This document shows, in pieces, positions 5,832 to 38,951 of a stretch of DNA of 64,000 nt. Source of the stretch: a virus (lineage: Duplodnaviria; Heunggongvirae; Uroviricota; Caudoviricetes); the IMG/VR virus record IMGVR_UViG_3300026382_000013, positions 17,331 through 81,330 of that record. One strand, 5' to 3'. Made by a program: the position numbers and the translations under genes. Within the stretch, counting starts at the first letter, position 1. The number at the start of each line of letters is the position of its first letter. The notes under the pieces were generated by a model, which worked only from the letters and a program-made list of their open reading frames with translations, ran no database searches and had not been told where the DNA came from.

Positions 5832-5841
5832 AGGACATATT

Positions 5842-9667: not shown

Positions 9668-9675
9668 GGATTGCT

Positions 9676-9945
9676 ATGTATTTACGATTTAAACCGCTAG
9701 AACAAATTAAAAGTGAAGCCTATGCAATAACAGTAAATGGGGATATACAATACATAAAAAATGGTGTGTGTGTACCAAAAAATATGCAATGTATATTCAC
9801 TACTAAGCCTATTAAAGTACATTATAACAGTTCTATTTCATATTTACTTGTAACACCTATCAATTATACTATTCGCAAAGATTTAGTATTAGAAGAAGAT
9901 CAACATTTATACACACAATACATGTTTAAACATAAATTACTATAA
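9676..9945 (+). CDS. small paralog family member (89 aa, ends ...QYMFKHKLL)
   Basis: ataaggattgctATG. N-terminal MxxxFKxxE and C-terminal FKHKLL shared with the 9407 ORF. Confidence 0.45.
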   Translation: MYLRFKPLEQIKSEAYAITVNGDIQYIKNGVCVPKNMQCIFTTKPIKVHYNSSISYLLVTPINYTIRKDLVLEEDQHLYTQYMFKHKLL

Positions 9946-10055
9946 AGGAATCTAATGAAAACCATAACTAAAGATCTATATGAGATATTTTTAGCTAAGC
10001 CTAATATACCTGAAGATCTAAAAAAGGAGTTGACCGATAAAGCCCATGAATCACA

Positions 10056-10880: not shown

Positions 10881-10890
10881 AAGGATTATT

Positions 10891-11187
10891 ATGAAACCAC
10901 AAAGATACTTAAAAATACGCACATGGAAAGATATGGCTAAGGAGTATGGTACTAACATACATGGAGATATAACTGTTCAAGGAGTATTTCTTAAGGATAT
11001 GAAACCATTAGCAAATACAAAAATCCCAATACCAGACATTACCACATTCCTACAATACTGGGATATGTACAAAGTAGTAACTATAGCTGAAATGGATAAT
11101 GATAAATACTATATCACACTACCCATGCTTACTAAAAAATCTCAAGGTATCGTAATGACTACCCTCATGAAGTATAAAATATTATGA
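10891..11187 (+). CDS. hypothetical protein (98 aa)
   Basis: taaaaggattattATG. Confidence 0.5.
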   Translation: MKPQRYLKIRTWKDMAKEYGTNIHGDITVQGVFLKDMKPLANTKIPIPDITTFLQYWDMYKVVTIAEMDNDKYYITLPMLTKKSQGIVMTTLMKYKIL

Positions 11188-11465
11188 TAGTATTAAAACC
11201 TAAACATCTAACAATAATCTTTTTAAGTACTAATACCGAAATCCCAAAAGATGTACTGTATGGTTGGAATGAAGCTATGGCATTAAATTTATTAGCTAGA
11301 ACATTTGAGATTTATAAGATAATAATACTTAAAGAATATTTAGAATTGTATATTAAAGACATGCCTTGGACTATATCTATAAACATGCTAACAGATGAGT
11401 CTAAAACTAAAGTAACTAAATATTTATTTGAAGAAAAAGTATTACATTTAATAAAACATAAATAA
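11184..11465 (+). CDS. small paralog family member (93 aa, ends ...LHLIKHK)
   Basis: C-terminal K/H-rich tail and downstream aaacataaataaggaag motif resemble the 9407 and 9676 ORFs. Confidence 0.4.
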   Translation: MIVLKPKHLTIIFLSTNTEIPKDVLYGWNEAMALNLLARTFEIYKIIILKEYLELYIKDMPWTISINMLTDESKTKVTKYLFEEKVLHLIKHK

Positions 11466-11473
11466 GGAAGTTT

Positions 11474-23805: not shown

Positions 23806-24245
23806 CAGATGAGCAAATACAGTCTATACTAGATTATAATGACGAATATGATAAATTATTCTTTTTATTCCAAGCCACTGATCCAGATGATAAATTACAA
23901 GAATTTTACGAAGAAGCTATCCTACCTTATGAAGATGAGTACACACTAGCTTTGATGGAAAATTTAGGTGAAACATTTGATTTATGCTCTACATGGGTGC
24001 ACGATAAATACTTAGTGTTCTCTGAAGAGTCTGTTAGAGCGGCTTGTGAAGAAAGTTTAGACTATATGGTAAGAGAGCGTACAGAAGAGATACCACAAGA
24101 TTTACGCTACTACTTTGATTCAGATGCTTACTTAGAAGATTTAATAGACTCAATGAGTGCTGGAGAGATACTATCTAGATATGATGGTAACGAGGAGTAT
24201 GAAATTATAAATGGTACAACTTATTATATATACAGACAATATTAA
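23802..24245 (+). CDS. hypothetical acidic protein (147 aa)
   Basis: ORF; D/E/Y-rich. Confidence 0.45.
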   Translation: MTDEQIQSILDYNDEYDKLFFLFQATDPDDKLQEFYEEAILPYEDEYTLALMENLGETFDLCSTWVHDKYLVFSEESVRAACEESLDYMVRERTEEIPQDLRYYFDSDAYLEDLIDSMSAGEILSRYDGNEEYEIINGTTYYIYRQY

Positions 24246-24291
24246 GTATCTTAAAGATACAATTACAACCCAAAACACAAAAGGATAAACA

Positions 24292-24573
24292 ATGACAAAA
24301 CAAGAATTAGTTGAAGAGTTAGCTCTTCTAGAAGATTTCGAATCAAAAGCAGCTGCTAGTAGAGCATTAGAATTAGTTATTAACACAATCAAAGAACAAG
24401 TCTCTAAAGGTAATGAAGTTAATGTAAGCGGTCTAGGTAAATTCTTTCCACAACTTCAAAAAGGTAAATCTGGTGTAGTCCCTGGAACTGATAAAACATA
24501 CACTACTCAAGATAAGATGGTACCTAAATTTAAAGCGGCAACTAGCTTTAAAGATGTAGTAGCAGGTAAGTAA
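24292..24573 (+). CDS. HU/IHF family DNA-binding protein
   Basis: MTKQELVEELA...SKAAASRALE...VSGLGKF...PKFKAATSFKDVV follows the HU fold pattern. Confidence 0.7.
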   Translation: MTKQELVEELALLEDFESKAAASRALELVINTIKEQVSKGNEVNVSGLGKFFPQLQKGKSGVVPGTDKTYTTQDKMVPKFKAATSFKDVVAGK

Positions 24574-26829
24574 GTGATTACCTTAGCTGCTAACAAAAAG
24601 CACGACATCATTAAACGTGATGGACGTGTGGAGCAGTTTAATGAAGATAAGTTATTTAAAGTATTCTTATGGGCAGCAGAAGGTTCTGAGATATTTGCAA
24701 AGAAGTTGCTAGAAGCTATATCTATTAAAATAAACAATCGTATGAGAATTGAAGTCTTATACGATGAAGCTATAGATACAGCATCTAATCTTATATCTGA
24801 TCTTTACCCACAATGGGAAACTATTGCTAGAAACCTATATATACTTAAATTACATAAGGACATCGGCTGTAAACGTGCAGAATACCCTGATTATAATGAA
24901 ATTGTATTTGGTAATGAATCAGCAGGTAAATACTCTACAGCATTCTTAGACGAACTTAGTGACCTTAGAATAAATAGACAAATACTAGCAGACGCTATTG
25001 TCCCTGAACGTGATAACTTATTCACTTTTGGAGGTTTAAATTTATTTGTACAAAAATACTGTTTTACAGACAAAGGGCAATTACTAGAACTACCACAACA
25101 TGTTTATATGAGAGTTGCGATTCAGCTCATGTATGCACAAGGTATTGAGGCTATTATTGCAAAATATAACCAAATTTCAACGCATTCTGTAACAGAAGCA
25201 ACACCAAAAATGGTAAATAGTTTATCTAACTCACCCTCGTTATTTTCATGTTGTATGTGTAAACCAACAGACTCGCTAGAAGGTATTGAAGAATCTTTGC
25301 AAATGTTAGCTAAAGAATCTAAATACGGTGGTGGAGACGCTTGGGATGTATCATGTATACGTGCTAAAGGTTCTATAATTAAAGGTAACAATGGCAAATC
25401 TTCTGGTGTCATACCGTACTTGCAAGATGCTCAAGCAACAATAGGTGCATACAACCAAGGTGGTACAAGAAGCTCAGCATTAATAGTGTCATATAACTGG
25501 TTCCACTATGAGTCACCAGAAATTGGTAAAGCTAAATTAGAATCTGGTAAAGATGAAGATAGAGCTAGAAAAATTAAGTATGCTATTAAATGGAATAAAC
25601 ATCTATCTAATGCTATACGTAATGATGAGTATATATACTTAATTGATCCACATAAAACACAAGACTTAACGTATGCTTATGGTACTGAATGGGAAAAGCT
25701 GTATACTAAGTATTCCACAGATTCAACAATCCATAAACGTAAATACAAAGCTAGAGATTTAGCTTTTGAAAATGCTACTATCAAAGTTGAAACGGGCAAT
25801 AATTACACGTTCTTTACTGATAATTGTAACTTACAAAACATAGGTACTGGTACTATAACAAGCTCTAACCTATGTATGGAAATGCAGACATCATTCAACC
25901 CAATTGAGGTAACTTCTACTAAATTACTAGATACATCAATGCAAACCATAACTTATGGTGATATGTCATTATGTAATTTAGCATCTATAAATATTATGAA
26001 GTGGGTATATTTAGATACACAAGAAAAACGTGAATTTATGTATACACTAGTATCATCTATGGACAATGCTATTGATAACTCATTCTATGCTAACCCATTA
26101 GGGCAACAACATTCTGCTAACCATAGAGATTTAGGTATTGGTATATCTAATTACGCTAATTATTTAGCTACGTACAAAACAACATGGAGTTCACAGCTTG
26201 CTAGAGAACTTACACATAAGCTTATGGAAGAGATTTCCTATTTTGCTATTGAAGCTTCTATTCAACTTGCTAAAGAACGTTCAAGGTGTGCTGTGTTTGC
26301 TGATACTAAATGGGCACAAGGATTATTCCCACATGAATTATCAATATTACCTAAAGACCGTAAAGACTTATATTTACCATTAAACCTTGATTGGGAACCT
26401 TTACGCAGAGATTTACTTAAATATGGTATACGCAATTCAAGATTATTAGCTATTGCACCAACTGCAACATCTGGTAAATGTATAAATGCTACTGAGGGTG
26501 TAGACGTACCACGTAAGTTTAAAACTATTGCTGAAGGTACATACTCATTACCATTTGTAGTACCAAACTTGCAACATAACCGTGAGTACTACAGTACAAC
26601 ATTTACAACAGATAATAAAGATGTTATAGAACTTGCAGCTATACGTCAAAGATTTCTATGTATGTCTCAATCAGTGTCTTTAGGGTATGCTAACCCAAAT
26701 TCAGCACATGAGATTGTACATGATATTATGTATGCTGAAGAACTTGGACTAAAGACACTCTACTACACGTACACACCTACAGCTGGTGATGATATCGAAG
26801 ACGAAGAGTGTGAAGCATGTGGAACATAG
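24574..26829 (+). CDS. nrdA: ribonucleoside-diphosphate reductase alpha subunit (class I, with ATP-cone)
   Basis: GTG start directly after the HU stop. ATP-cone KRDGRVEQFNEDKL, active site SSNLCMEMQ, C-terminal CEACGT. Confidence 0.85.
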   Translation: MITLAANKKHDIIKRDGRVEQFNEDKLFKVFLWAAEGSEIFAKKLLEAISIKINNRMRIEVLYDEAIDTASNLISDLYPQWETIARNLYILKLHKDIGCKRAEYPDYNEIVFGNESAGKYSTAFLDELSDLRINRQILADAIVPERDNLFTFGGLNLFVQKYCFTDKGQLLELPQHVYMRVAIQLMYAQGIEAIIAKYNQISTHSVTEATPKMVNSLSNSPSLFSCCMCKPTDSLEGIEESLQMLAKESKYGGGDAWDVSCIRAKGSIIKGNNGKSSGVIPYLQDAQATIGAYNQGGTRSSALIVSYNWFHYESPEIGKAKLESGKDEDRARKIKYAIKWNKHLSNAIRNDEYIYLIDPHKTQDLTYAYGTEWEKLYTKYSTDSTIHKRKYKARDLAFENATIKVETGNNYTFFTDNCNLQNIGTGTITSSNLCMEMQTSFNPIEVTSTKLLDTSMQTITYGDMSLCNLASINIMKWVYLDTQEKREFMYTLVSSMDNAIDNSFYANPLGQQHSANHRDLGIGISNYANYLATYKTTWSSQLARELTHKLMEEISYFAIEASIQLAKERSRCAVFADTKWAQGLFPHELSILPKDRKDLYLPLNLDWEPLRRDLLKYGIRNSRLLAIAPTATSGKCINATEGVDVPRKFKTIAEGTYSLPFVVPNLQHNREYYSTTFTTDNKDVIELAAIRQRFLCMSQSVSLGYANPNSAHEIVHDIMYAEELGLKTLYYTYTPTAGDDIEDEECEACGT

Positions 26830-26838
26830 GAGGTAAAC

Positions 26839-27906
26839 ATGATAGACTTAACTAAAACTGTACCAACATCATCATTGTTCTTTGGAGAGCATAGTGGTAT
26901 TGGTAGGTTAGATTTAAAATACAGTAGCAAGATTAAAGCTCTTGCTGAATTAGATGAAGCTAATGCATGGTATCTAAACATTATATCTTGTTCTCAAGAC
27001 AGGTGGTCAGAATTTCCACCTCATGCACTATCTAAATTTCAAAAGAACCTTGCATACCAAACTGTAATGGATTCTTTAGTACCTGATATATTTGCATACC
27101 TAGCTGAAATAGCTAATGACCCATGGATGTCATACTTATACTCACGTATATCCACTATGGAGAAAACACATGCGTTATCTTACTCATCTGGTGCAGATCA
27201 AGCATTTGGAGCTAAAGCTACTGAATTCTTAAATATAATGTATACAGATCCTAAAATAGCTGATAGAGTATCTGATGAACTAAAATCAGCTAAAGAGTTT
27301 ATACAAGCTGTAAGAGATGGGTGGGAAGATTCAATAGATAACCGTAAACTATTACTTATAATTTTGTCACGTACACTACTATTAGAAGGTATTAAATTCC
27401 CATTTTCGTTTTATACATCTTGGTCCTTAAATAAAGGCTATAACAATTGTGCTCAAGGCTTTAGTCAACTACTTATAAAGATAGCTATTGATGAAATGGA
27501 AGTACACACAACATTAGGTGAACTTGCTATTAAGGAACTTAAAAAAGACCCGTCATTTAATGTGCTGATAGAGTCTAATTGGTTCTCCTCAATGTTTGCT
27601 GAAATGAAACAAGCTACAGTTGATAAAGAACTTAAATGGTTAGAATACTTATTAGAGGACGGAGATACACCTGGCTTTAATTATGCTATAGGTGAGCACT
27701 TTATAAAATACTGGGCAGACTTTAGAGCTAGGATGATAAAAGAACCTACCCACTATAATGTGAAAAAGAATGATATCGAGAAATGGTTTGACGCATATAG
27801 AAATCCTAAAGGCAAAACACAAGCACTACAAGAAATAGATAATGTAGCTTATCAACTAGGGCAATTAGTTAACGATTTAAATAAATTTGATAAGGTTGTG
27901 GGATGA
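26839..27906 (+). CDS. nrdB: ribonucleoside-diphosphate reductase beta subunit
   Basis: taggaggtaaacATG. Two E..H iron-ligand pairs (MEKTHAL, EMEVHTT). Immediately follows nrdA. Confidence 0.75.
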   Translation: MIDLTKTVPTSSLFFGEHSGIGRLDLKYSSKIKALAELDEANAWYLNIISCSQDRWSEFPPHALSKFQKNLAYQTVMDSLVPDIFAYLAEIANDPWMSYLYSRISTMEKTHALSYSSGADQAFGAKATEFLNIMYTDPKIADRVSDELKSAKEFIQAVRDGWEDSIDNRKLLLIILSRTLLLEGIKFPFSFYTSWSLNKGYNNCAQGFSQLLIKIAIDEMEVHTTLGELAIKELKKDPSFNVLIESNWFSSMFAEMKQATVDKELKWLEYLLEDGDTPGFNYAIGEHFIKYWADFRARMIKEPTHYNVKKNDIEKWFDAYRNPKGKTQALQEIDNVAYQLGQLVNDLNKFDKVVG

Positions 27907-28067
27907 ATTTATTTACAGCTACAGCGCTACTTAAAAACTTAGAGACTCTAAAAGTTAAAGACCCTGTGTTATTTCAACGTATTCAAGAGTTATTGACTAA
28001 AGGACCAACAGATGCTACAATTGCAGAAGCCAAACAATTACTTGAGGAGGTGACTAATGGAAAATGA
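27903..28067 (+). CDS. hypothetical small protein (54 aa)
   Basis: ORF in the gap between nrdB and the next gene; overlapped start. Confidence 0.3.
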   Translation: MNLFTATALLKNLETLKVKDPVLFQRIQELLTKGPTDATIAEAKQLLEEVTNGK

Positions 28068-28368
28068 TGGTAAAAACCAAACTACTACACAAGATATACT
28101 TAAAGAGCGAGGTTCTCGCTATGGTACATTTGCTAACCATGCTAAGTGCTCTTCAGCTCTTAGAGAGGCATTCTTTACACATCAGATGGCGTATGGACAA
28201 GCACCACTTACAGCAACACAGACAGAAGCTATCATACTTATTTTACATAAATTAGCTCGTATTGCTAATGGAGATCCAAATTACGATGATAATTGGATAG
28301 ATTTATGTGGCTATTCTCAATTAGTGGTGGATGACCTCAATGGTACAGATTCTAATAACACTAATTGA
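28057..28368 (+). CDS. hypothetical protein (103 aa), possibly MazG-like all-alpha NTP pyrophosphatase
   Basis: gaggaggtgactaATG. ERGSRYG...HA and DNWIDLCGY resemble MazG-like motifs. Weak. Confidence 0.4.
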   Translation: MENDGKNQTTTQDILKERGSRYGTFANHAKCSSALREAFFTHQMAYGQAPLTATQTEAIILILHKLARIANGDPNYDDNWIDLCGYSQLVVDDLNGTDSNNTN

Positions 28369-28618
28369 GGACGTACAACTAGCTAACAAAATCTCATATA
28401 CTGAGGCTGTTAATTTAGTTATAGACTCTGGCTTACTATCAGGGCATGAGTATAGTGTTATAGAAATAGCAGCAATACTAAAAATACCTAAAAGCCACGT
28501 GTCTAAAATAGAAATAGCAGCTATTAAAAAACTAACTCACCCATCTATTGGTATTGAACTTCGTAGGTACTTAAATTTACCTAATGCTGAAGATATCAAA
28601 TATACTGGGCACGAATAA
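28331..28618 (+). CDS. sigma-70 region 4-like HTH protein (candidate transcription regulator)
   Basis: EYSVIEIAAILKIPKSHVSKIEIAAIKKL resembles sigma region 4.2. Confidence 0.45.
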   Translation: MTSMVQILITLIEDVQLANKISYTEAVNLVIDSGLLSGHEYSVIEIAAILKIPKSHVSKIEIAAIKKLTHPSIGIELRRYLNLPNAEDIKYTGHE

Positions 28619-28627
28619 GGACAACAT

Positions 28628-29212
28628 TTGGAATACCTATTAAACAAAAAACCTGAGACGATATGGGAAGAATACGTACCTATTGTTAAATCTGGAAACA
28701 CATATACAGTCTACTTAACAGACCAAATAGATGTCCCAGCTAACTACAATCAACTAATGCATGTGCTAACTAATGCTACAACACTAGATACAATTAAATT
28801 TATAATTAATAATGGTGGTGGAGTTATTGACACTGGATTTATGTTAATCAATGCTATCAATAACACAGATGCACATACTGTAGCCCACATAACTGGTACA
28901 GTAGCATCAGTTGCAACTATTATAGCTTTATCTTGTGACACACTTATATGTGATAACCATATATCTTTTATGATACATAACTACTCAGCAGCAGTTGGAC
29001 ACCAAAAAGGGCATGAACTAAAAGCTTATCAAAACTTTACAGACAGAGAGCTTAACAAAACTTTTCGCATAGTCTACGCAAACTTCTTAACAGAAAAAGA
29101 AATGACTGACGTTATAGAAGGTAAAGATATCTGGCTAAATAAAGAAGAAGTGCTGGAAAGATGGGAAAGAACTAAGGAAACAGTTCATGAGGAGGATTGC
29201 ATTGAACATTAA
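28628..29212 (+). CDS. ClpP-like (S14 family) serine protease
   Basis: INNGGGVI, GTVASVATIIA (Ser) and FMIHNYSA (His) align with ClpP INSPGGxV / GQAASMG / MIHQP. TTG start. Confidence 0.65.
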   Translation: MEYLLNKKPETIWEEYVPIVKSGNTYTVYLTDQIDVPANYNQLMHVLTNATTLDTIKFIINNGGGVIDTGFMLINAINNTDAHTVAHITGTVASVATIIALSCDTLICDNHISFMIHNYSAAVGHQKGHELKAYQNFTDRELNKTFRIVYANFLTEKEMTDVIEGKDIWLNKEEVLERWERTKETVHEEDCIEH

Positions 29213-30572
29213 TGTATTAGATACTAATGTAATTTTGCTTCAGGCTTCTAACATACTAACACTTGGTAAGTATGCTACCATTGTTATACCTGAAACTGTT
29301 GTAGATGAGCTAGACGCAAAAAAGTCTGGACATAGTGAGATTGCATACCAAGCTAGACAATTTGGACGTATACTAGCTAAAGCTGAGTCTCATGGTACAA
29401 CTACTACAGACGTAGCAACACTAACCAAATTCATCATAGACGATGTTGAAATACTAATTGTGAGTGCATTACAGTACCCCTCTTTTAAAGACACTGAGCA
29501 AGCTATACGTAATGATCGTAAGATTATTCATATAGCTGATATACTTAGTACTACATATAACACAACTTTTATATCAAACGATGTTATGTGTAGGATAAGA
29601 GCTGAGTCTTTAGGTTTACATACAGAAGATGTTAAAGATGTACAAGATACTACATTTGAATTTACTAAAGAACTTTATGTAACAGACATAGTATTTAGTG
29701 ATTTACATAACAAACAAATTACTTCTGTTGATAAAGACTATAAATTTCAACACCGTAACTATAAGTTTATAAATACAGTTACCAACCAAATGAAACTTGC
29801 TACTATCACAACTAATGGTATTATTGATATCATAGGTAAAACTACAGAGAAAGAGCTACGTAAACAAGATGTAGCACCAATCAATAGTGACCAACTATTA
29901 TTAGCTCAGGCTATCCAAGATCCTTTAACAGATGTGATAGTTTGTGAAGCACTATCTGGATCAGGGAAGACAACTTGTGCTATATCTAATGCTATGAAGC
30001 TTGTAAAGACTAACACACCTTACACTTCTATCATATACATTAGAGCTTCTATAGATGATGTAGATGATGCCGAAGCTGTAGGATTTTTATCAGGTAATGA
30101 TGAGAAATTTGCTGTATACTCACACCCTCTACACGATACATTAGACTTCATTGCACGTAATCGTAATAAGAATTCTAAGTTACATGGTAAAGAGTATGAA
30201 GAGCGTATACAAGAAACTATTGATGACATTACGGATAAGTACAATATACAGTTTATGACAACATTAGGTATGCGTGGACGAACATTTAGAGATTCTGTGA
30301 TTATTATAGATGAACTACAAAATCAATCTAAAGCCTCATTGCAAAAAACACTTACAAGATTCAAAGACTGTAAAGTGATACTAATTGGTTCTAATAGACA
30401 GATAGATAATAAGTATCTAACCAAATATACCAATGGATTGTCAGTTGTATTAGACGACTGTACTAAACCAAACGACTACATTAATGCACATGTTGTACCT
30501 TTACATAAAGTAGAGAGATCTCGTATTGCTGAATGGAGTGAAAAACTTTTTGACAAGGACTCAAACAAATGA
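29187..30572 (+). CDS. phoH: PhoH-like ATPase with N-terminal PIN domain
   Basis: PIN-like N-terminus (VLDTNVIL). Walker A SGSGKTT, Walker B IIIDELQN. Alternative TTG start at 29202 after gaggagg. Confidence 0.8.
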   Translation: MRRIALNINVLDTNVILLQASNILTLGKYATIVIPETVVDELDAKKSGHSEIAYQARQFGRILAKAESHGTTTTDVATLTKFIIDDVEILIVSALQYPSFKDTEQAIRNDRKIIHIADILSTTYNTTFISNDVMCRIRAESLGLHTEDVKDVQDTTFEFTKELYVTDIVFSDLHNKQITSVDKDYKFQHRNYKFINTVTNQMKLATITTNGIIDIIGKTTEKELRKQDVAPINSDQLLLAQAIQDPLTDVIVCEALSGSGKTTCAISNAMKLVKTNTPYTSIIYIRASIDDVDDAEAVGFLSGNDEKFAVYSHPLHDTLDFIARNRNKNSKLHGKEYEERIQETIDDITDKYNIQFMTTLGMRGRTFRDSVIIIDELQNQSKASLQKTLTRFKDCKVILIGSNRQIDNKYLTKYTNGLSVVLDDCTKPNDYINAHVVPLHKVERSRIAEWSEKLFDKDSNK

Positions 30573-30772
30573 AAATTAAAAACTTAGTAGACATTGCTGA
30601 CGCATTAACTATAGACGATATCAGAATTAAAGTAACTAAAAAGAAATCTAACATTTTAGTTAAATACAAAGGCTACAAGGCTATCAAATTTAAACGCTTA
30701 CACCCTTTATCTTACGAATACAATGAAGATGATTTATGGGACTTACTAGAGTCAATTCAAGAGGAATTCTAG
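30569..30772 (+). CDS. hypothetical protein (67 aa)
   Basis: ORF, overlapped start. Confidence 0.4.
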   Translation: MKIKNLVDIADALTIDDIRIKVTKKKSNILVKYKGYKAIKFKRLHPLSYEYNEDDLWDLLESIQEEF

Positions 30773-30774
30773 CA

Positions 30775-31236
30775 ATGAACATAAATCCTATAAAAGCTAT
30801 ACACAAATTCAACAAAGATGCTGGATTTATAGATTCTGGTTATAACGCATCAAAAGAAGCTGCGTATCCTATCGAGGAGGCTCTTGAAGGTCTAGATAGA
30901 CTCGGTAACCTAAGTATGCAACTTACAGGCTCTACAGATGATATGGGTAGCCCTAAAGACCTCTCACGTATTATCGTAGACTTAGCTACATCTGATAATT
31001 GTACTATAGCAGACGTAGATGCACTAGATAAACATGTAGACTCAATCGTATTTAACTTTGGGTCCATATTCAAACTTGGACTTACACCACAACAAGCTAT
31101 GCGAGCAATCTCTATTGTTATGGAAGCTAATATGACAAAACTTACAGTAGGTACTGATTCTCAAGGTAAACAAATGAAACCTAAAGATTTTGTATCACCA
31201 GAAGCTAAGTTACAAAAGCTTTTAGATGAGCGTTGA
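30775..31236 (+). CDS. hypothetical protein (153 aa), possibly MazG-like
   Basis: Internal ATG 30775 used, since the longer start overlaps the previous gene. EEALEGLDRLG... weakly MazG-like. Confidence 0.35.
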   Translation: MNINPIKAIHKFNKDAGFIDSGYNASKEAAYPIEEALEGLDRLGNLSMQLTGSTDDMGSPKDLSRIIVDLATSDNCTIADVDALDKHVDSIVFNFGSIFKLGLTPQQAMRAISIVMEANMTKLTVGTDSQGKQMKPKDFVSPEAKLQKLLDER

Positions 31237-31284
31237 AATTTTAATACTAATAGGTGTCTGGGGTAATTTTATACTCCAGACCTT

Positions 31285-31614
31285 ATGGTTTATTCGTACA
31301 AAGGACAAACATTAATGGAACTAACATTACACTATTACTGGGTGTACAAAGCAGTATTTTTATTATCTATTCTATTTACAATTTATAAGATATATAAATC
31401 AGAATTTACTAGTAAATCTTGGGGAGTAACTTTAATAGTACTAACAATACTAGCCAACATATCTCCAGTAAAACTTAAACCAATTACAGACTCTGTAAAT
31501 ACTTTACAAAACATATCTATAGAAAACTCTAAAAAACTCCCAGAATTTAAACAAGACAATAGGTTTAAATCTGCAACACATATAGAAGGCATTAAACCTT
31601 CAGACTTACAATAA
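31285..31614 (+). CDS. membrane protein (109 aa, 2 TM)
   Basis: Hydrophobic segments YYWVYKAVFLLSILFTIY and GVTLIVLTILANISPV. Confidence 0.45.
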   Translation: MVYSYKGQTLMELTLHYYWVYKAVFLLSILFTIYKIYKSEFTSKSWGVTLIVLTILANISPVKLKPITDSVNTLQNISIENSKKLPEFKQDNRFKSATHIEGIKPSDLQ

Positions 31615-31625
31615 AGGACAATAAT

Positions 31626-32501
31626 ATGAAAAAAACATTATTAGCTACATTGTTTGTAGCACTCTCATTATTAACATTCACTGGATGTAATGAACAAGTA
31701 CCCGCTGGCACAAAAGGTAAAATTTTAGGTAAGACTGGATGGCAACCTGAAGTCTTCCCACCATCTAAAGTATGGGTAGCGACTACTTTTACAACAACAC
31801 CTGAGAAGTTATTTCTTATAGAAACAACTACTAGAAAGTTTGTACAACCTATTAAAGTACTCCTCAAAGATAAACTTACATTGAATGCTGAAATTGTTTT
31901 CAGAGGTAGAGTAACATCAAATGATAGAGTCATAAATAGCTTATTTAATGATATGCCTATGAATGATAACATTGTTACAACTGAAGAAGTGTACAATACA
32001 TATGGTAAAATGGTAGTTCTTAATACAGCTAGAGAAGTGATTTCTAAATACAATGTGGATGAAGTAAATACTAACTATGCACGAATCACAGTTGAGCTGT
32101 ATAATGCTATCAAGCCTAAATTAAAAGGACTACCTATAGACATCTCAGATGTTACATTAGGTAATATCCAATACCCTAAAATTGTTACATCAGCTATTGA
32201 AGCTGCTAAACAAAGACGCATGGAAATTGAGAAAGAGCAAGCACAAGTGCAGATAGAGCTAACAAAAGCTAAAGGTCGTGAGCAAGTAGCAAAAGCTAAC
32301 TATAGAGTTAGAATGCTAGAAGCTAAACAAATACGTGACTACAACAAGATGATAAATTCTGGCCTGACAGATGATTTAATTGAACTCAAGAAAATCGAGG
32401 TACAAATGAAGTTGGCTGAAAATCTAGGTAACAACGAAAATGTTGTTTACATGCCTATGGAAATGATGTCATCTACAGAATTTTTAAAATCTATTAAGTA
32501 G
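31626..32501 (+). CDS. SPFH/band-7 (prohibitin/HflKC-like) domain lipoprotein
   Basis: Signal peptide with lipobox LTFTGC. C-terminal coiled-coil EIEKEQAQVQIELTKAKGREQVAKANYRV...VVYMP typical of the SPFH C-terminus. Confidence 0.6.
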   Translation: MKKTLLATLFVALSLLTFTGCNEQVPAGTKGKILGKTGWQPEVFPPSKVWVATTFTTTPEKLFLIETTTRKFVQPIKVLLKDKLTLNAEIVFRGRVTSNDRVINSLFNDMPMNDNIVTTEEVYNTYGKMVVLNTAREVISKYNVDEVNTNYARITVELYNAIKPKLKGLPIDISDVTLGNIQYPKIVTSAIEAAKQRRMEIEKEQAQVQIELTKAKGREQVAKANYRVRMLEAKQIRDYNKMINSGLTDDLIELKKIEVQMKLAENLGNNENVVYMPMEMMSSTEFLKSIK

Positions 32502-32616
32502 GTATTAAGTAGTATCCCACTACAATTCCAGGATGTTACTAGTTTTTAATTCCATTTTTACTAGTGACATTCCTTCTTAACTAAGTCACTGCTTGCACAC
32601 TTAGCTTATCTTATAT

Positions 32617-32691
32617 TGAGTAGTACCATAGTGGTATTGGGCCAAGCTGTTAACTTGGAAGTCACTGGTTCGAATCCAGTCTACTCAGCCA
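32617..32691 (+). tRNA. tRNA-Asn (GTT), CCA encoded
   Basis: Acceptor TGAGTAG/CTACTCA; anticodon stem CCAAG/CTTGG with loop CTGTTAA; T-arm ACTGG-TTCGAAT-CCAGT; discriminator G; CCA. Confidence 0.8.
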
Positions 32692-32692
32692 T

Positions 32693-32780
32693 GGAAAGTT
32701 GACCGAGTGGTCTATGATATCTGTTTGCTAAACAGACGTAGTTAACTCTACCGTAAGTTCGAATCTTACACTTTCCACCA
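32693..32780 (+). tRNA. tRNA-Ser (GCT), type II with long variable arm, CCA encoded
   Basis: Acceptor GGAAAGT/ACTTTCC; anticodon stem TCTGT/ACAGA with loop TTGCTAA; variable arm GTAG-TTAACT-CTAC; T-arm GTAAG-TTCGAAT-CTTAC. D-stem has one mismatch. Confidence 0.7.
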
Positions 32781-32958
32781 CACTTCAAATACTATCTATT
32801 AAATTCATTATATTATGCACTTACTAGATGTTATTTATACATTGCACTTATTACTTTATACTTATTATATATACCTACATTATGCAAAACATGTGTTAAA
32901 TTACTACTACATGGTACTTAAGCAAGATTTTAAGTGTCTCAAGTTATAATACACTTAT

Positions 32959-32982
32959 GTATCGGATTTCGATACACTTTTT
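32959..32982 (+). terminator. short hairpin GTATCG-gattt-CGATAC followed by a T-run
   Basis: Inverted repeat plus cacttttt, downstream of the tRNA pair. Confidence 0.35.
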
Positions 32983-32994
32983 AAAGGAAATCAC

Positions 32995-33486
32995 ATGATG
33001 GAAATTAGTAGGAATATTGTATTGACAGCTGAAATTTTGGATAGTAACGACACACTCCAAACTTTACATGCTGAGGAAAAGATTGTTGAGAAATATTATA
33101 GCATAAAAAACTTAAACATGAGGATAAACTATATGGACTTAATTGACTACCAATCTAAAATATGTAATAGTAGTAAAGATATACTACTATTTGGGGACCT
33201 GTTCAGACATCTAGACACTAATAACTACTTACACATAAATGTCTCTAAATGGGCTAAAGAGCATGAGTACTCTCGCAGTAAAGTAAATATTGTACTAAAA
33301 AAAGCGATAGATTGTGGTTTTATAGTCAAAATTTCTTCTGGCATATATTTTGTAAACCCTTTTGTTATACGTGGCCTAGGCTTCAAAAACAACGAACTAT
33401 TCGAGGCATGCCAACATAAATGGAACACTATAAATACACATAGTTTTGACCAAGATAAATTAGAGGGCATCCTGTCTAAAATGTAA
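32995..33486 (+). CDS. hypothetical protein (163 aa), last gene of the plus-strand arm
   Basis: taaaggaaatcacATGATG. Confidence 0.5.
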   Translation: MMEISRNIVLTAEILDSNDTLQTLHAEEKIVEKYYSIKNLNMRINYMDLIDYQSKICNSSKDILLFGDLFRHLDTNNYLHINVSKWAKEHEYSRSKVNIVLKKAIDCGFIVKISSGIYFVNPFVIRGLGFKNNELFEACQHKWNTINTHSFDQDKLEGILSKM

Positions 33487-33493
33487 TTTAATA

Positions 33494-33532
33494 CATTCCT
33501 CCCAGACTATACTTATATTCATGGGAGGAATG
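33494..33532. terminator. bidirectional terminator hairpin at the point where the two arms converge
   Basis: Perfect 11-bp stem cattcctccca / tgggaggaatg with a 17-nt loop, flanked by A/T runs on both sides. Lies between the stops of 32995-33486 (+) and 33539-37867 (-). Confidence 0.6.
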
Positions 33533-33538
33533 TTACAT

Positions 33539-36500
33539 CTATTTAAAGATGTTTAATATAGGTATCGTAGTACCACCATCTAATAACCTCATAGCACTAT
33601 CTATTGGGCTAAGTCTGCCACCTAATGTTTGGAATATATTACTATGGAATATACCAGCATCTGGGCTTAATCCTAACTTCTGTGCACTTATATCCATTAA
33701 TACCCTAAATCCATTCTTTCTTAATCTACTGATCTCTACTCTTTGGATGTTACTCCAATACTTATAGAATGCTTCAGGACCAATAGCATCAAGATATTGT
33801 ATAGTCTTACTATTTATTACTTTACTATAGTTGATAAAGTTATCAGTAACTTCTCTTCGCATCTCTTCACTTTCCCTACCATGCTCAATACCATACCAAT
33901 ATAATGCAGCTCTAAAATGGAAGTCACTTTCTTGTGTTACAGCTACCATAAATCTACCTAATTCCGACTTGTTAGTAAGGAATACCGTTTGTATTGCTTG
34001 ATGTAATAAGCTATTTTTACCAGCTACTTTATCTAATTGATCTGTTACAGCTTGTGTAATCGGATTGTTATCTTCTATATCTGCTATATCTTCTACAATA
34101 GCTTGGAACATACCCGCATCCATTAAAGGTTTCAAGGGGTTATGTGCCATTCTATCCTCTATCTCAGCAAGCTTCTTAACATACTTATCTCTTTCCTTAC
34201 CTTCACTACTATGCATCATTCTTATAGCTTGTAGTCTTTCCTTATCATCTATTTTCCATTGTCTTAAACTTTTTCTACTTAACCATAATTTACTCATAGC
34301 CTCCATTGGGCCCATACCTGAGTATACTAAAAATTTAGCATTACTTACTATATTTCCATATATTGTTGATGGCATTTTAACTACGACATTACTTTTAAGT
34401 AGTTGTGCAAAACTCTTTACATAGTGTTCAGCTACCCTAATCTTTCTTTCAGTCTCTTTACTTACTTTAATCCTAGTTTTACCTATACGTTTGATATCCA
34501 TTATACTTGGCTCATTATATGCAAACAATTGATTTATCAAATCTTTTCTTACATACAATACTCTATCTTCTGCATCTGGACCATGCATCTCTCTATTCTT
34601 TTGTCTTATGTAGTCTCTAGCATCTTTAGGTAGTAATGCCCAATACTCTTCAGCTTCAGTTTTTAACCCATACTTGCCTTCATCTTTTAGATCTTCATAA
34701 CCACTTTCATACAGTTTTCTTCTATCCTCTTCATTTAGGTTAAGCTCTTTAGGTTGTATTTTTATATACAGATGTTGTGTATCTTTAAATTGCTCACCAG
34801 ATGTATCTAAATCTTTTGAGTCATCCATAACTATATCTACAAGCTTTCTATTCTGTTCATTAGTAAGTTTCATTGTACCTACTTGACCAAAACTTCTACC
34901 TAACTTCTCAACACCATTAACACTTAATTCTAGGTACTTAATAGCGTCATCTTTACCTATTGGGTATCTAAAGTCTATTATGAAACCTCTATCATTGTAT
35001 ACAGGCTGCATAAGCTCTATGTCACCATCTTGTTCACTATAGCCACTGTTATCTTCATATCTTTCTATAGCTTCATTACGTACTTTAATAAACTTCTTAA
35101 CCATTTGCTTGTCATCAAGTTCAGGAGCTGACATTCTTACTTTGTCACTTAATAGTAACCCTGGTACTGTTCTTCTTTGTAAACTTGCAGCGCCATCTAC
35201 ACGTTTCCCTATACCTGCATTGACATTAACATATACACCATACTCAACATTATCAGTATCATTGTATGCTTCAATTAGATTACGTACTAGTTTGTATCCT
35301 TGTGCTTCCATTTCTTTACGCTTATACACAGGAGCATACTTCATGTCTCTATTGATATGTGTTTTATCCCTTGCCTGGCCTTTAACAAAGTCATGGTATT
35401 CACCAGATTCCTGCATTTCTTCCGCAGTTGCTTCTAACATACCTTTGGCAGTGTCTAAATAAAACTTTACACCATCCGAGTCAATATCTATAAGTTCAGC
35501 TAACTCATTTCTACCTCTAGACATTCTTAAAGCTTCTAATGTGATTAGCTTGTCGATAGCCTCTACGTACACTTCTTCACTACCATCTCTATCTACATCC
35601 CATACATGACCATACATTAATGCTATATTTCTTGCATTAGTTCTTAGACCCTTACCTACAACAAGGTACCTTGCAGCTTCTAGTATATCTCTCATGTACA
35701 TATGTTTTTGGAATGTTGGTAGGTCTTTAAACTCTGTGGCTACTATCTTATTCACTTCTTCATCTATAGCTTTATCACTACTAAGTAACTCTTTAGTTCG
35801 TTTCATCCCAAGACTTCTAGCAACTACTTGTAAGTCTGTACTAAGTGCTGCACTCTCTAAAGCTTCTCTATACTTCTTGTTAGCTAAGGCATTTATATCT
35901 ATCTTTGTAAAAGCTTCTGTTATATCTTGTACTGTACCTTTAAAATTGTGATCTCTAAGCCTATCTACCATACTTCTAAACTGCATTGTCATATCTGTTA
36001 TCTGTACAAGTGTTCTTCTACCTGCCATAAAGTCTGACATAACTGCATGTACAAATGAACCTTCACCTACTCCTAAGTCCATCAGAAGCTTACTTTGAGC
36101 TATAGCTAGACCTTCATCACCTGTTGTATGTTTAAGTGCTTTATTGAGCTTCTTTAGAGTTCTAATTGTTCCCATAGCTTTAATAGCTGACTTGAAGTAA
36201 TTATCTGTACTTTTAGGCTCATACTTATGTAAGTCATCCAGTATCTTTTGGATAATCTTTTCAGTCTCCATACCTCTTTTAGCTTTAATTGCTTCATACA
36301 TCATATTTTGAATAGCTTTAGATTTGTATAGTGCTCTATCTATCATATCTGTACTTACTGATAACTTCTTTAACCACTCATTCTCACTAAGAAGTTTTTT
36401 AATTTCTTCCTCTGTTGCTTTGCTACCTGCTTTTGGTCCTTTTTTACCATCATCCCCATTCATCTTATCTATAGCCCAATTCACTGGTACACTTACTTTA

Positions 36501-37867
36501 GCATCTAGTGTATCTAGTACTTCATCAATCTTACCTACTATCTTCTCATTGATTGGCATGCCTTGTCTTTGAGTAGCTTTACCAGCATATCTATCTTGTA
36601 CTTGTGTTAAAGCATAAACTAACTTTGTACTCTCTTCTAGTAGTGTATCACCTTTTATCTTTTTAGCTTTACCTAGCATAGCTTGAAATGTATTCCAGAA
36701 CCATCTAGTCACTACATCGAGTATAGTCTCATTAGCCTTTTTCTCTTTCATTATCTTTTCAGGAGCTTTCTTGTCTAGTGCTTGCATTAAGGCTTTATTT
36801 GTCATTAGATGGGCCATAAACTCTTGTAGTCTAATACCAGCTAGCTTTTGGTTATATGTATTACTAGCTGTCCCAAAGATATACTCATATCTTTCTTTAG
36901 CCTTATCAATCTCAGCTTCTGTGTACACACCTTCATACTCAGGTAGGAAATCTTCAAATGTAATTACTTTCTGTGCATACTTATATAAGTCTCTAATTTG
37001 TAGTTTTAAGTCAGCACCTGCTGTTGGTATCTTACTATTGAATACCCAATCTAATGCTGCATGCACTGTTTCATGTACTAAAGCTTCTTCATTAGTCATT
37101 GTGAATAAATTCCTAGCTTCTTCTCCTAAGCTACCCCTGATTATACGTATCTTAGCACCTTCAGCAGTTGGGTCAAACATTGCTATTGGTTCTACTATCT
37201 CTTGTACTTTATCTGTTGTTACTTGAATACCAAGTTTTGCTATCTCTTTAGACATCTCCTGAAGCTTCATAGACACTTCTTTAAGTTGTGCACTATGTTC
37301 TGCATCCCAGTCTCCACCTAAAGCTTCTTGGTCAGCTTTCTGCATCTCAGCTTGTATATTCTCTAGTGTACCATCTATCGTATTTGCACTATTAAACATT
37401 TCATTTATTTCTTCATATGTCATGCCATCATTATTATACAACACAGCATCTATGTTGAACTTTCTCAACATCTTAGTCATAGCTTCCTTCGAGTATGTAA
37501 TCTTACTATCTACCCCATCAGGTGTTAATCCATTTCTAGTTACAATAGCATAACCATTTTTACCTTTATCAGTAACATGACTTACTTTATACTTATTTGG
37601 ACCTAACTGCACTACACCTGTAATCTTTACTCTATAGTTCTTATGTCTCGTTCTAGCTTTATGTGTACTAGCATTTCTACTGTAGTACACAGACTGTATT
37701 TGGTACATATCACCAGCCAACTCTTTCTGTACACTTCTAGCTCTATTTCTAGCATCCATTGTAGCCATCTCAATAGCAATATTTGGATCTAGTTGTGGGT
37801 TATCCGCTATAGCTTGTTTTTTAAGCTCATCATTAAGCTCTAGGGTATCTATGTTACATTGTGCCAT
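33539..37867 (-). CDS. giant virion-associated protein (1442 aa), probable internal/ejection protein, with an HExxH motif
   Basis: Last gene of the late operon. LVHETVHAALDW (zincin-like HExxH). The size class matches podovirus internal core proteins. Function inferred. Confidence 0.5.
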   Translation of the reverse strand: MAQCNIDTLELNDELKKQAIADNPQLDPNIAIEMATMDARNRARSVQKELAGDMYQIQSVYYSRNASTHKARTRHKNYRVKITGVVQLGPNKYKVSHVTDKGKNGYAIVTRNGLTPDGVDSKITYSKEAMTKMLRKFNIDAVLYNNDGMTYEEINEMFNSANTIDGTLENIQAEMQKADQEALGGDWDAEHSAQLKEVSMKLQEMSKEIAKLGIQVTTDKVQEIVEPIAMFDPTAEGAKIRIIRGSLGEEARNLFTMTNEEALVHETVHAALDWVFNSKIPTAGADLKLQIRDLYKYAQKVITFEDFLPEYEGVYTEAEIDKAKERYEYIFGTASNTYNQKLAGIRLQEFMAHLMTNKALMQALDKKAPEKIMKEKKANETILDVVTRWFWNTFQAMLGKAKKIKGDTLLEESTKLVYALTQVQDRYAGKATQRQGMPINEKIVGKIDEVLDTLDAKVSVPVNWAIDKMNGDDGKKGPKAGSKATEEEIKKLLSENEWLKKLSVSTDMIDRALYKSKAIQNMMYEAIKAKRGMETEKIIQKILDDLHKYEPKSTDNYFKSAIKAMGTIRTLKKLNKALKHTTGDEGLAIAQSKLLMDLGVGEGSFVHAVMSDFMAGRRTLVQITDMTMQFRSMVDRLRDHNFKGTVQDITEAFTKIDINALANKKYREALESAALSTDLQVVARSLGMKRTKELLSSDKAIDEEVNKIVATEFKDLPTFQKHMYMRDILEAARYLVVGKGLRTNARNIALMYGHVWDVDRDGSEEVYVEAIDKLITLEALRMSRGRNELAELIDIDSDGVKFYLDTAKGMLEATAEEMQESGEYHDFVKGQARDKTHINRDMKYAPVYKRKEMEAQGYKLVRNLIEAYNDTDNVEYGVYVNVNAGIGKRVDGAASLQRRTVPGLLLSDKVRMSAPELDDKQMVKKFIKVRNEAIERYEDNSGYSEQDGDIELMQPVYNDRGFIIDFRYPIGKDDAIKYLELSVNGVEKLGRSFGQVGTMKLTNEQNRKLVDIVMDDSKDLDTSGEQFKDTQHLYIKIQPKELNLNEEDRRKLYESGYEDLKDEGKYGLKTEAEEYWALLPKDARDYIRQKNREMHGPDAEDRVLYVRKDLINQLFAYNEPSIMDIKRIGKTRIKVSKETERKIRVAEHYVKSFAQLLKSNVVVKMPSTIYGNIVSNAKFLVYSGMGPMEAMSKLWLSRKSLRQWKIDDKERLQAIRMMHSSEGKERDKYVKKLAEIEDRMAHNPLKPLMDAGMFQAIVEDIADIEDNNPITQAVTDQLDKVAGKNSLLHQAIQTVFLTNKSELGRFMVAVTQESDFHFRAALYWYGIEHGRESEEMRREVTDNFINYSKVINSKTIQYLDAIGPEAFYKYWSNIQRVEISRLRKNGFRVLMDISAQKLGLSPDAGIFHSNIFQTLGGRLSPIDSAMRLLDGGTTIPILNIFK

Positions 37868-38949
37868 TAGTTACATTCCTCAATCATTTTGTTTATTATA
37901 TCTTCTATACTGTTATTCGTAGCTTTATTTAGTGTACCTTCATCTACTATACTATCTACAGATGCTATAGCATATCCACCTGTGCTAGTACCAAAGCCTT
38001 TACTCTTAAGGTATCTAGTGATGCTCTCAAATAGTTTTTGAATACTGCTCTGCTCGCTCTGTGGAAATTGCTTAATGAACTCTTTCCGTATGTTAGGTTC
38101 TGCACTAAGTATAGCAACTAGTTCAGCGACTTGAGCAAACTTTGTAGGTCTTTTAGCTGCATACATTAATCTCTGTTTAAGTAAATTCTGTTCCAGTGTG
38201 TGGTCTGGGTCAAACTCTTTAACCATATCTATTGTATCTAGCAAATACTTAACTCTGGTATCACTCATATGGTTGCTAAGCCATTCAGCTGTTAGGTAAT
38301 GTCTTATTTCATGTGCAGTGTACACTTCATACATCGCCTCATCTACATGCTCATTAGGCTTGACAACAGTTATTACGCCCTCATTGTACCAGAACTCTTC
38401 ACCTTCTACTACAACACCTGGATACTCTTTTTTAAACTTAACATTAGCTGCTTTTATCTCAGCTAACTCTTTGGCATCTACATATACCTCATTAAGTTCT
38501 GAACCTGCATCAGTAGCTCCTAGAGCAGGGTTAGACTCTTTACTCACATCAATAGTAGCTTCTGTGGTATTGTACACATCAGCCAACTCTTCATAGAAGT
38601 TCTCACCTTCGTACACAGCAAGTGAATCCCCATTACTAAACTCATAACTCCATCTTTTATCTCCACGGGAGCCTTCTTGGTCATCCCAGAATGGTCCTTT
38701 CTCTTTCACTATATCGTCTAGTGTAACCTTCTCACCATCTAATACAAATGTATCACCTATGTTAGGTACTTTCCCTACATTACTAGTTTTATTGCTGTTA
38801 GGTAACTTACTTTTGTCTATTACATCTAGCATACTACCTATACTTTTAAAATTCTTATCTACTGTTAAGTACTCACCACTAAATTTACCCAACTTCTTAA
38901 GTTCATTATTTACAGCTTCTACTGCTGCTTCTACTGTACATGACTTCAT
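37867..38949 (-). CDS. virion-module protein (360 aa) with HExxH motif
   Basis: YTAHEIRHYL. Start overlaps the stop of the 2393-aa gene. Confidence 0.45.
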   Translation of the reverse strand: MKSCTVEAAVEAVNNELKKLGKFSGEYLTVDKNFKSIGSMLDVIDKSKLPNSNKTSNVGKVPNIGDTFVLDGEKVTLDDIVKEKGPFWDDQEGSRGDKRWSYEFSNGDSLAVYEGENFYEELADVYNTTEATIDVSKESNPALGATDAGSELNEVYVDAKELAEIKAANVKFKKEYPGVVVEGEEFWYNEGVITVVKPNEHVDEAMYEVYTAHEIRHYLTAEWLSNHMSDTRVKYLLDTIDMVKEFDPDHTLEQNLLKQRLMYAAKRPTKFAQVAELVAILSAEPNIRKEFIKQFPQSEQSSIQKLFESITRYLKSKGFGTSTGGYAIASVDSIVDEGTLNKATNNSIEDIINKMIEECN

Positions 38950-38951
38950 AC

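Follow-up and report, generated by a model that had tools for sequence, protein, structure and literature searches.

In IMG/VR record IMGVR_UViG_3300026382_000013, a virus of the class Caudoviricetes, a gene for a ClpP-like protease lies among genes of nucleotide metabolism and away from the head genes, which raises the question of what kind of ClpP homologue this is and what it does there. The stretch analysed, hereafter the window, comprises 64,000 nucleotides (positions 17,331 to 81,330 of the record). A first-pass annotation made from the letters alone had pointed to two open reading frames (ORFs) at 28331-29212, both of which are present: one of 95 aa (28331-28618), described as resembling region 4 of sigma-70, and one of 194 aa (28628-29212), described as the protease. 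Three functions had been offered for the latter, namely the processing of a non-structural target, the remodelling of host proteolysis, and head maturation in trans. The first appears to fit the data best, whereas the other two are disfavoured.

The protease gene and its product

The product of ORF 28628-29212 is a serine peptidase of the ClpP fold whose Ser-His-Asp triad is intact. The gene (assigned by Pfam, PHROG, the AlphaFold model and triad conservation), its catalytic codons and its junction with the preceding ORF (both read from the sequence) are as follows:

28628..29212, + strand: ClpP-fold serine protease, 194 aa, TTG start
28907-28909, 28976-28978 and 29126-29128, + strand: codons of catalytic Ser94, His117 and Asp167, respectively
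28616..28630, + strand: junction of the sigma region 4-like ORF and the protease gene, consisting of a TAA stop, an AAGGA Shine-Dalgarno sequence, a 6-nt spacer and the TTG start

In the Pfam family CLP_protease (PF00574) the 194-aa product scores 35.5 bits (E 1.2e-8), above the gathering score of 20.2, and PHROG 1827, named 'ATP-dependent protease', is matched over nearly the full length (E 1.7e-47), residues 18-189 being aligned with positions 17-187 of the 202 in the profile. The likeness to ClpP noticed at first pass is confirmed and goes far beyond chance. An AlphaFold model built on 67 homologues reached a predicted local distance difference test (pLDDT) value of 90.1 and a predicted template modelling score (pTM) of 0.84, and its top Foldseek matches in the PDB are bacterial ClpP structures, with a probability of 1.0 and template modelling (TM) scores of 0.60-0.68, so that the fold is of the ClpP/crotonase type. 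In MAFFT and profile alignments GTVAS94, FMIH117 and GKD167 correspond to Ser97, His122 and Asp171 of E. coli ClpP. The Ser and His motifs singled out earlier are thus real, and the structure prediction and triad check suggested along with them revealed no loss of catalytic residues. Among the 67 homologues (44-66% identity) the Ser and the His are kept in 67/67 and the Asp in 65/67, the N-terminus of the protease aligns with the N-termini of the homologues, and the protein is under purifying selection.

The handle helix is present in the model, as it is in cellular ClpP. In addition, the family has invariant motifs that cellular ClpP does not share: W13, Y16 and P18, in a segment standing in place of ClpP helix A; HNY directly after the catalytic His; and K127-G128-H129-E130 (KGHE) at the start of the handle helix. 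The invariant 'YVPI' of the family was first taken for the counterpart of the ClpP pore motif 'LVPMV'; MAFFT and hhalign both put it at the helix-A position, and the resemblance was not relied on. No signal peptide was found in the protease.

Relationship to cellular ClpP and to head maturation proteases

Within NCBIfam the best score of the protease, 62.9 bits, is obtained with NF045542 (ClpP-related head maturation protease) and falls below the cut-off of 120, while the models of cellular ClpP yield at most 25.7 bits against cut-offs of 228-361; the homologues T5.042 of phage T5 and gp211 of phage ICP1 score likewise. Several PHROG families of head proteases are matched at E 1e-15 to 1e-22. 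The model is also closer to viral stand-alone Clp-like proteins, its best structural matches (TM about 0.8), than to cellular ClpPs (about 0.65). With the latter (MEROPS S14; for instance E. coli ClpP and P. aeruginosa ClpP2) the protease shares the fold, the triad, the handle helix and a similar length, yet it differs from them in an identity of merely 16-24%, in scores far below the curated cut-offs, in a non-hydrophobic docking pocket and in a pore N-terminus that is not conserved.

The IGF/LGF pocket, by which ClpX and ClpA dock, was compared by alignment and not by structure at the positions of E. coli Y60, Y62, F82, I90, M92, F112 and L114, the equivalent of F112 being ambiguous. The residues Y60/Y62/F82/I90/M92/L114 become K57/I59/N79/H87/T89/D109 in the protease, and the family majority has T, H, N, K, S and S. 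Even T5.042, the host of which is E. coli, carries N/M/N/H/I at the equivalents of Y60/Y62/F82/I90/M92. By this comparison the protease is without a hydrophobic docking pocket for ClpX/ClpA. Nor was a conserved counterpart found of the pore-lining N-terminus and axial loops of ClpP: the hhalign alignment to the E. coli protein begins only at mature residue 10, and the first ~12 residues of the protease vary in length and sequence among homologues and are modelled with a pLDDT of 63. A search of the window for a phage-encoded Clp-type unfoldase or ATPase found none. Because the docking pocket and the pore N-terminus are unmatched and no Clp-type ATPase is encoded in the window, the label 'ATP-dependent protease' is unsupported.

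These features bear directly on the possibility that the protein is a true ClpP replacement or hybrid subunit, which would join the host ClpP barrel and, driven by host ClpX or ClpA, keep or retarget ATP-dependent proteolysis. Such a role is what the database name implies, and it would agree with the ClpP fold, the full triad, the handle helix, the mature-ClpP-like length, the passing of the Pfam threshold and the existence of cellular ClpP1/ClpP2 hetero-complexes among the PDB matches. However, the curated ClpP models remain far from being reached, the docking positions are polar or charged and variable throughout the family, T5.042 included, the pore motif has no conserved counterpart, and the only AAA+ gene at hand (4653-5831) is one half of a MoxR/VWA-type pair. 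Replacement of ClpP is therefore judged unlikely, and the interaction with host ClpX/ClpA, which the first-pass annotation had named as a point to check, is disfavoured. The AAA+ gene was also considered as a protease-specific unfoldase partner and rejected: the pair to which it belongs occurs in the AD45 phages as well, and it was not seen in the fetched flanks of T7-like carriers of the protease.

The nearest curated families are those of head maturation proteases (NF045542; PHROGs 1684, 94, 2976 and 133), which resemble the protease in their fold and their catalytic Ser and His and which, like the family considered here, do not have the N-terminal and docking features of cellular ClpP. Unlike them, the window protease is encoded outside the head module, shows no fusion to scaffold or capsid protein and no C-terminal extension, and occurs in phage types that need no head protease; T7 and N4 are not known to use one in building their heads. 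The protease thus probably belongs to a phage-only clade that is nearer to ClpP-related prohead proteases than to cellular ClpP and that has been redeployed outside the head module. This apparent placement, and the putative loss of the unfoldase-docking features, are newly described here. When the gate of ClpP is opened, by N-terminal deletion or by acyldepsipeptides, unfolded proteins are degraded without an ATPase, and by analogy the phage protease may work like such a gate-opened ClpP.

Gene layout of the window

The window represents an N4-like podophage, in which an arm on the minus strand (33.5-64 kb) is structural and an arm on the plus strand is devoted to replication and nucleotide metabolism. 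The structural arm encodes the virion RNA polymerase (PHROG 2206), the capsid protein, a gp57-like protein and an N4-type portal of the gp59 kind, in agreement with the portal, scaffold and capsid layout described earlier; no protease was detected in it, though for several of its ORFs no family could be assigned. The match of the capsid protein to the profile of its family starts at residue 8, and because the match begins there the protein would have no N-terminal extension or propeptide.

The plus-strand arm carries genes for ThyX, a MoxR-type AAA+/VWA pair, a split family-A DNA polymerase, primase, helicases, a Sak4-like protein and SSB (which binds single-stranded DNA), and continues with the string nrdA, nrdB, a 54-aa ORF, DUF6378, the sigma region 4-like ORF, the protease, PIN-PhoH, a MazG-like gene and an SPFH lipoprotein. 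The protease gene is ~26 kb away from the capsid and portal genes, which lie on the opposite strand, so that its position among phoH and nrd genes and far from the head genes was rightly noted at first pass. The neighbours are:

24574..27906, + strand: class I ribonucleotide reductase, nrdA 24574-26829 and nrdB 26839-27906 (Pfam on an identical contig)
28057..28368, + strand: DUF6378 protein (Pfam DUF6378, E 4.5e-8)
28331..28618, + strand: stand-alone sigma-70-family region 4 (4.1+4.2) homologue, 95 aa, or 92 aa if started at ATG 28340 (Pfam, PDB, NCBIfam)
29187..30572, + strand: PIN-PhoH (PhoH2-type RNA helicase/RNase), start ATG 29187 or TTG 29202 (Pfam PIN_4 and PhoH; NCBIfam PhoH2 below cut-off)
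30736..31236, + strand: MazG-like nucleotide pyrophosphohydrolase-related gene (PHROG 671, E 1.1e-10)
31256..31281, + strand: terminator-like hairpin 3' of the MazG-like gene, the first on this strand after nrdA (consensus scan)

The PhoH start and its ribosome-binding site GGAGGA lie within the 3' end of the protease gene, and translational coupling of the two genes in the window is likely. The transcription unit to which the protease belongs may end at the hairpin, a weak indication only, as the number of terminator-like sites is no higher than in shuffled sequence. At the DNA level, no similarity of positions 24000-34000 to known phages was found.

Conservation of the neighbourhood in related phages

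To the protease 80 viral loci were fetched, of which 64 with at least 38% identity were retained, the contig of the window itself being left out; the set was not dereplicated and includes some near-duplicate contigs, so that the counts are approximate. It includes 29 N4-like and 8 T7-like loci. Where enough flanking sequence was available, nrdA/nrdB were found within 6 kb upstream of the protease on the same strand in 40/48 loci, a PhoH start within 1.3 kb downstream in 29/48 (in 21 of them within 100 bp), and a MazG-like gene, which recurs as the final gene of the string, within 4 kb downstream in 22/43. DUF6378, which has this place in N4-like relatives, directly precedes the protease in 27/61 loci. 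By contrast, not one of the 64 loci has a portal or capsid gene within 1.5 kb of the protease. The string nrdAB-protease-PhoH2-MazG is conserved across unrelated podophage backbones, which is newly described here.

Among cultured carriers the nearest, at 49% identity, are the N4-like AD45 phages of Alteromonas, in which nrdA, nrdB, a small ORF and the protease are followed by a convergent virion RNA polymerase gene. The T7-like Roseobacter phage CRP-143 carries a homologue (gp27, 45% identity) in the order nrdA-nrdB-protease. In T7-like metagenomic carriers the string nrdA-nrdB-protease-PIN/PhoH is followed by T7-type portal, scaffold and capsid genes, and the same string is seen in N4-like metagenomic genomes. 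In a neighbour-joining tree built from the protease (without support values), the T7-like carriers are intermingled with the N4-like ones, which suggests that the gene may have been exchanged between phage backbones. According to a published comparison, ten T7-like roseophages share one conserved head module, and CRP-143 alone among them has a class I ribonucleotide reductase. It is also the only one of the ten to appear in the protease search, so that the protease follows nrdAB and not the capsid genes.

The wider family

Distant homologues of the protease, of about 25-35% identity, are found in many annotated phages, and the family (PHROG 1827) comprises 601 clusters at 50% identity (E <= 1e-30). 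The protease is thus one more member of a large phage family annotated ever since the T5 genome and provided with its own PHROG, a result that will not surprise a phage genomicist. Its members T5.042, ICP1 gp211, Barba gp072, AD45 gp065, V22 CDS-147 and CRP-143 gp27 are likewise small stand-alone ClpP-fold proteins of ~190-230 aa, encoded among early/middle or nucleotide-metabolism genes and often near nrd, PhoH or deoxynucleoside monophosphate (dNMP) kinase genes. The window protease shares ~30% identity with T5.042 and with ICP1 gp211, and lacks the ~150-aa C-terminal extension of the latter. The top 150 family representatives are all small single-domain proteins, and no domain fusion that could hint at a function was found among them. 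One representative (P0154, 327 aa), in which the profile match is confined to the first 137 residues, may contain an insertion, an intein or a frameshift.

In the T5 early region T5.042 adjoins the dNMP kinase gene, while the PhoH gene of this phage, T5.098, adjoins nrdA; a separate head maturation protease, T5.150, is encoded between the capsid protein gene and the decoration/portal genes. ICP1 gp211 is encoded near nrdB and PhoH (gp208), and a published transcriptome identifies gp125 as the late capsid protease of this phage. In Rheinheimera phage Barba the CLP_protease gp072 adjoins phoH (gp073), and a separate peptidase, gp097, lies between the portal and capsid genes. In the Alteromonas myophage V22 the genes for PhoH and the Clp protease (CDS-147) are consecutive.

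The family is essentially restricted to phages: a search of 185,579 species, each represented by a single genome, gave only 9 loci, mostly on short or phage-sized contigs of metagenome-assembled genomes (MAGs). The only match inside a large bacterial scaffold (locus L101) is that of Glaciecola sp. HTCC2999 (929,753 nt), where at 7723-11489 two tandem ClpP-like genes (216 and 305 aa) follow genes for a HAD hydrolase and a DprA-like protein and adjoin genes of the type II secretion system kind; this locus could be an island or a remnant. A DprA-like gene is also listed for phage V22.

In the searchable literature no functional study of non-structural phage ClpP homologues, or of T5.042, ICP1 gp211 or the AD45 and CRP-143 genes, was found, only gene lists; the papers describing the carriers list the gene or pass over it. 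A survey of N4-like viruses reports that 'cell cycle' auxiliary metabolic genes are enriched in environmental N4-like phages (PMC10654107), and these may correspond to the ClpP-like gene, mapped to the Caulobacter cell-cycle pathway.

Head maturation, PhoH and SPFH as alternatives

The absence of head genes around the protease bears on the view that it matures heads in trans, by trimming the gp57-like scaffold, the capsid protein or a protein inside the virion, for instance the split virion RNA polymerase. The best curated profile and the matches to PHROG head-protease families would favour such a role, as would the fact that no other protease was detected in a structural arm where several ORFs are without annotation. 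Yet the NF045542 score stays at about half of its cut-off, and by far the best PHROG is the non-structural family 1827. Portal or capsid adjacency is found in none of the 64 loci, and the protease is carried by only some of the T7-like and N4-like phages, which share their head modules with relatives lacking it. The phages T7 and N4, as already said, are not known to assemble their heads with a protease, the capsid protein seems to have no propeptide to be removed, and the 194-aa protein has no C-terminal targeting or scaffold extension. Moreover, T5, ICP1 and Barba each encode a homologue of it alongside a dedicated head protease. Head maturation, which had been one of the three proposals made at first pass, is consequently judged improbable, the more so as the gene travels with nrdAB and PhoH.

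The position of the PhoH gene invites another explanation, in which the protease and the adjacent PIN-PhoH2 ATPase form a two-part machine, with PhoH as its motor or as a partner under regulation, such as one whose PIN RNase inhibitor is removed by the protease. PhoH lies directly downstream, often at no more than 100 bp, with likely translational coupling in the window, and in the myophages Barba and V22 the Clp gene adjoins that for PhoH, while in ICP1 the two are close together. On the other hand, the two genes are 31 kb apart in T5 and 12 kb apart in CRP-143, a nearby PhoH is wanting in about 40% of the related loci with enough flank, and PhoH is not an AAA+ unfoldase. AD45-P1 has the protease and no PhoH anywhere, as judged from its annotation and from tblastn with five PhoH queries, which rules out an obligate ClpP-PhoH partnership; a PhoH-driven machine of any kind appears very improbable.

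An SPFH/Band-7 (stomatin-like) protein with a lipoprotein signal peptide is encoded 2.4 kb downstream of the protease (31626-32501), followed by tRNA-Asn and tRNA-Ser (32617-32780). SPFH proteins are also encoded by AD45-P1 (gp087) and T5 (T5.080, annotated merely as 'lipoprotein'). A protease of the NfeD/STOPP type acting on this protein might be imagined from these occurrences and from a weak match to Pfam NfeD1b_N (E 3.5e-4; 20.7 bits against a cut-off of 40). However, an SPFH gene is found within 10 kb of the protease in 0/79 other loci, and in no T7-like carrier. The 194 aa of the protease hold neither a transmembrane segment nor an OB-fold NfeD domain, and its catalytic residues are Ser-His-Asp and not a Ser-Lys dyad. 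Because the SPFH protein begins with the lipoprotein signal peptide MKKTLLATLFVALSLLTFTGC, it would be exported, unlike the protease, which carries no such peptide. The pairing was rejected for its distribution, for the domains present and for the difference in cell compartment, and can hardly be credited.

Proposed role of the protease

The reading that is regarded as rather probable is that the protease is made together with the DNA-metabolism genes and degrades host proteins or phage non-structural proteins and peptides in the cytoplasm, without canonical docking to ClpX or ClpA. The gene would be expressed with the genes of DNA metabolism and not with the late genes, and its product would act as a self-contained enzyme within the infected cell's cytoplasm. 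Its targets might be degraded, for example, in host takeover or in amino-acid recycling beside nucleotide salvage. It would not be the capsid maturation protease, and its clade would move between phage backbones together with nrdAB and PhoH.

Several points weigh against this proposal. The nearest curated profile, NF045542, is that of a head maturation protease and is compatible with a structural role. An unfoldase could possibly dock via a non-canonical surface, and the equivalent of Y62 is in fact Tyr in 12/67 family members (His in 29/67). The linkage to nrdAB and PhoH could result from co-transfer of accessory genes at a hot spot and not from shared function, and it has to be read with the redundancy of the loci and the missing support values of the tree in mind. 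A possible member of the family, the 'clp protease' of the cyanosiphophage Mic1, clusters with late genes. In a MAFFT alignment T5.042 has Asn at the position of the triad Asp. Finally, the role of the protease, including activity, oligomeric state, partners and substrate, is deduced from sequence and predicted structure.

The family has members in the model phages T5 and ICP1 as well as in abundant marine podophages, and the name 'ATP-dependent Clp protease' or a place among the metabolic genes is given to it as a matter of routine, with no test behind either. Should the name prove wrong, to which the loss of the docking features points, these annotations and the tallies of 'auxiliary metabolic genes' would be misleading, and a widespread enzymatic step of phage infection would stand unexplained. 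The tight linkage to class I ribonucleotide reductase and PhoH also offers a handle on PhoH, a very common phage gene of unknown function, and T5.042 and ICP1 gp211 open the question to direct genetics.

The sigma region 4-like neighbour

The 95-aa ORF upstream of the protease matches Pfam Sigma70_r4 exactly at threshold (24.1 bits), and in the PDB it is matched best by primary sigma factors in the form of isolated region-4 domains (3n97_A, E 3.7e-7), which bears out the resemblance to sigma-70 region 4 pointed out at first pass. The match to 3n97_A spans residues 18-81 and so takes in regions 4.1-4.2 in full, along with the C-terminal KLxHPS motif, and the NCBIfam matches all fall at the extreme C-termini of RpoD, SigC and SigK. 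Region 2, responsible for core binding and -10 recognition, is not present in the 95 aa, every match being confined to region 4; because it consists of region 4 only, the protein cannot be a sigma factor. It is here recognised as what appears to be a complete stand-alone sigma region 4. In the alignment with these domains the recognition-helix motif TRERIRQIE corresponds to PKSHVSKIE, with the hydrophobic core retained, and the E. coli residues R584, E585, R588 and Q589, which are presumably those that read the -35 element, are replaced by K, S, S and K. The structural model is poor (pLDDT 68), and its Foldseek matches are not significant, the top ones being sigma region 4.

The pairing of this gene with the protease, to which the first-pass annotation had given prominence, is not conserved. 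The ORF was found in its own contig only: no copy is present in the 79 other related viral loci, tblastn against all phage records gave no match, and a search of 5.8 billion proteins yielded one cluster, 96% identical. No homology was detected to the small ORF upstream of the AD45 protease, nor was there any compositional sign of recent acquisition (guanine-plus-cytosine (GC) content 0.333 against 0.33-0.37 for the neighbours). The gene is a lineage-specific insertion between DUF6378 and the protease, an orphan with no conserved link to the latter. The two ORFs share a reading frame and are separated by the TAA and 3 codons, an in-frame arrangement that would arise by chance in 1 of 3 cases; read-through of the TAA would yield a sigma4-protease fusion.

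While the protein shares with primary sigma factors the whole of region 4.1-4.2 and the KLxHPS motif, T4 AsiA and gp33, phage factors that target the region-4 site on RNA polymerase, are not homologous to sigma. That it serves as a decoy or as a binder of the beta flap is speculation. If it truly bound RNA polymerase, it would represent a new phage way of interfering with host transcription, for now in the form of a single orphan.

A combined scenario, conceivable but unlikely, would make the protease a capsid-protease-derived enzyme that functions as a gate-less, unfoldase-independent cytoplasmic protease within a mobile 'macromolecule salvage' cassette, with a sigma-70 region-4 decoy in frame upstream. 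If true, it would be a viral counterpart of the ClpP deregulated by acyldepsipeptides. The cassette (class I ribonucleotide reductase, PIN-PhoH2 RNase/helicase and MazG-like protein) would shuttle between T7-like, N4-like and other phages, the protease destroying host proteins while its cassette partners turn host RNA into DNA precursors, and the decoy would add interference with host RNA polymerase to the same operon.

Other features of the window

The MoxR-type pair consists of an AAA+ ATPase (PF00004) followed by a VWA-like DUF2201 protein (4653-7227, + strand), with gp052 and gp051 as the counterparts in AD45-P1. The family-A DNA polymerase is distributed over two ORFs, 7980-9413 and 10056-10880 (+ strand), which match consecutive parts of the same PHROG profiles and lie ~640 bp apart with no long ORF between them; this could reflect a split gene or the remnant of an inserted element. 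A tRNA-Met is encoded at 3141-3217.

The N4-type virion RNA polymerase is made up of three consecutive cistrons at 33539-46133 (- strand), coding for 2393 aa (38952-46133), 360 aa (37867-38949) and 1442 aa (33539-37867). Because each cistron has its own Shine-Dalgarno sequence and a stop/start overlap, the split is not a frameshift artefact. The first break is located near profile position ~2015 of 3406, which we take to lie approximately at the boundary of the polymerase domain and the C-terminal domain of N4 gp50. The polymerase is also split in the relatives L008 and L009 and in AD45, where the record notes a 'potential frameshift'.

As to the host, several contigs with homologous loci (L093-L098) belong to MAGs binned as Sulfurovum, Sulfurospirillum, Sulfuricurvum and Aliarcobacter, with GC contents of 29-39%, like that of the window (34%), which gives a hint that the host of this phage lineage is a member of the Campylobacterota. 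One N4-like homologous contig was binned, implausibly, in the MAG of a Sulfolobales archaeon.

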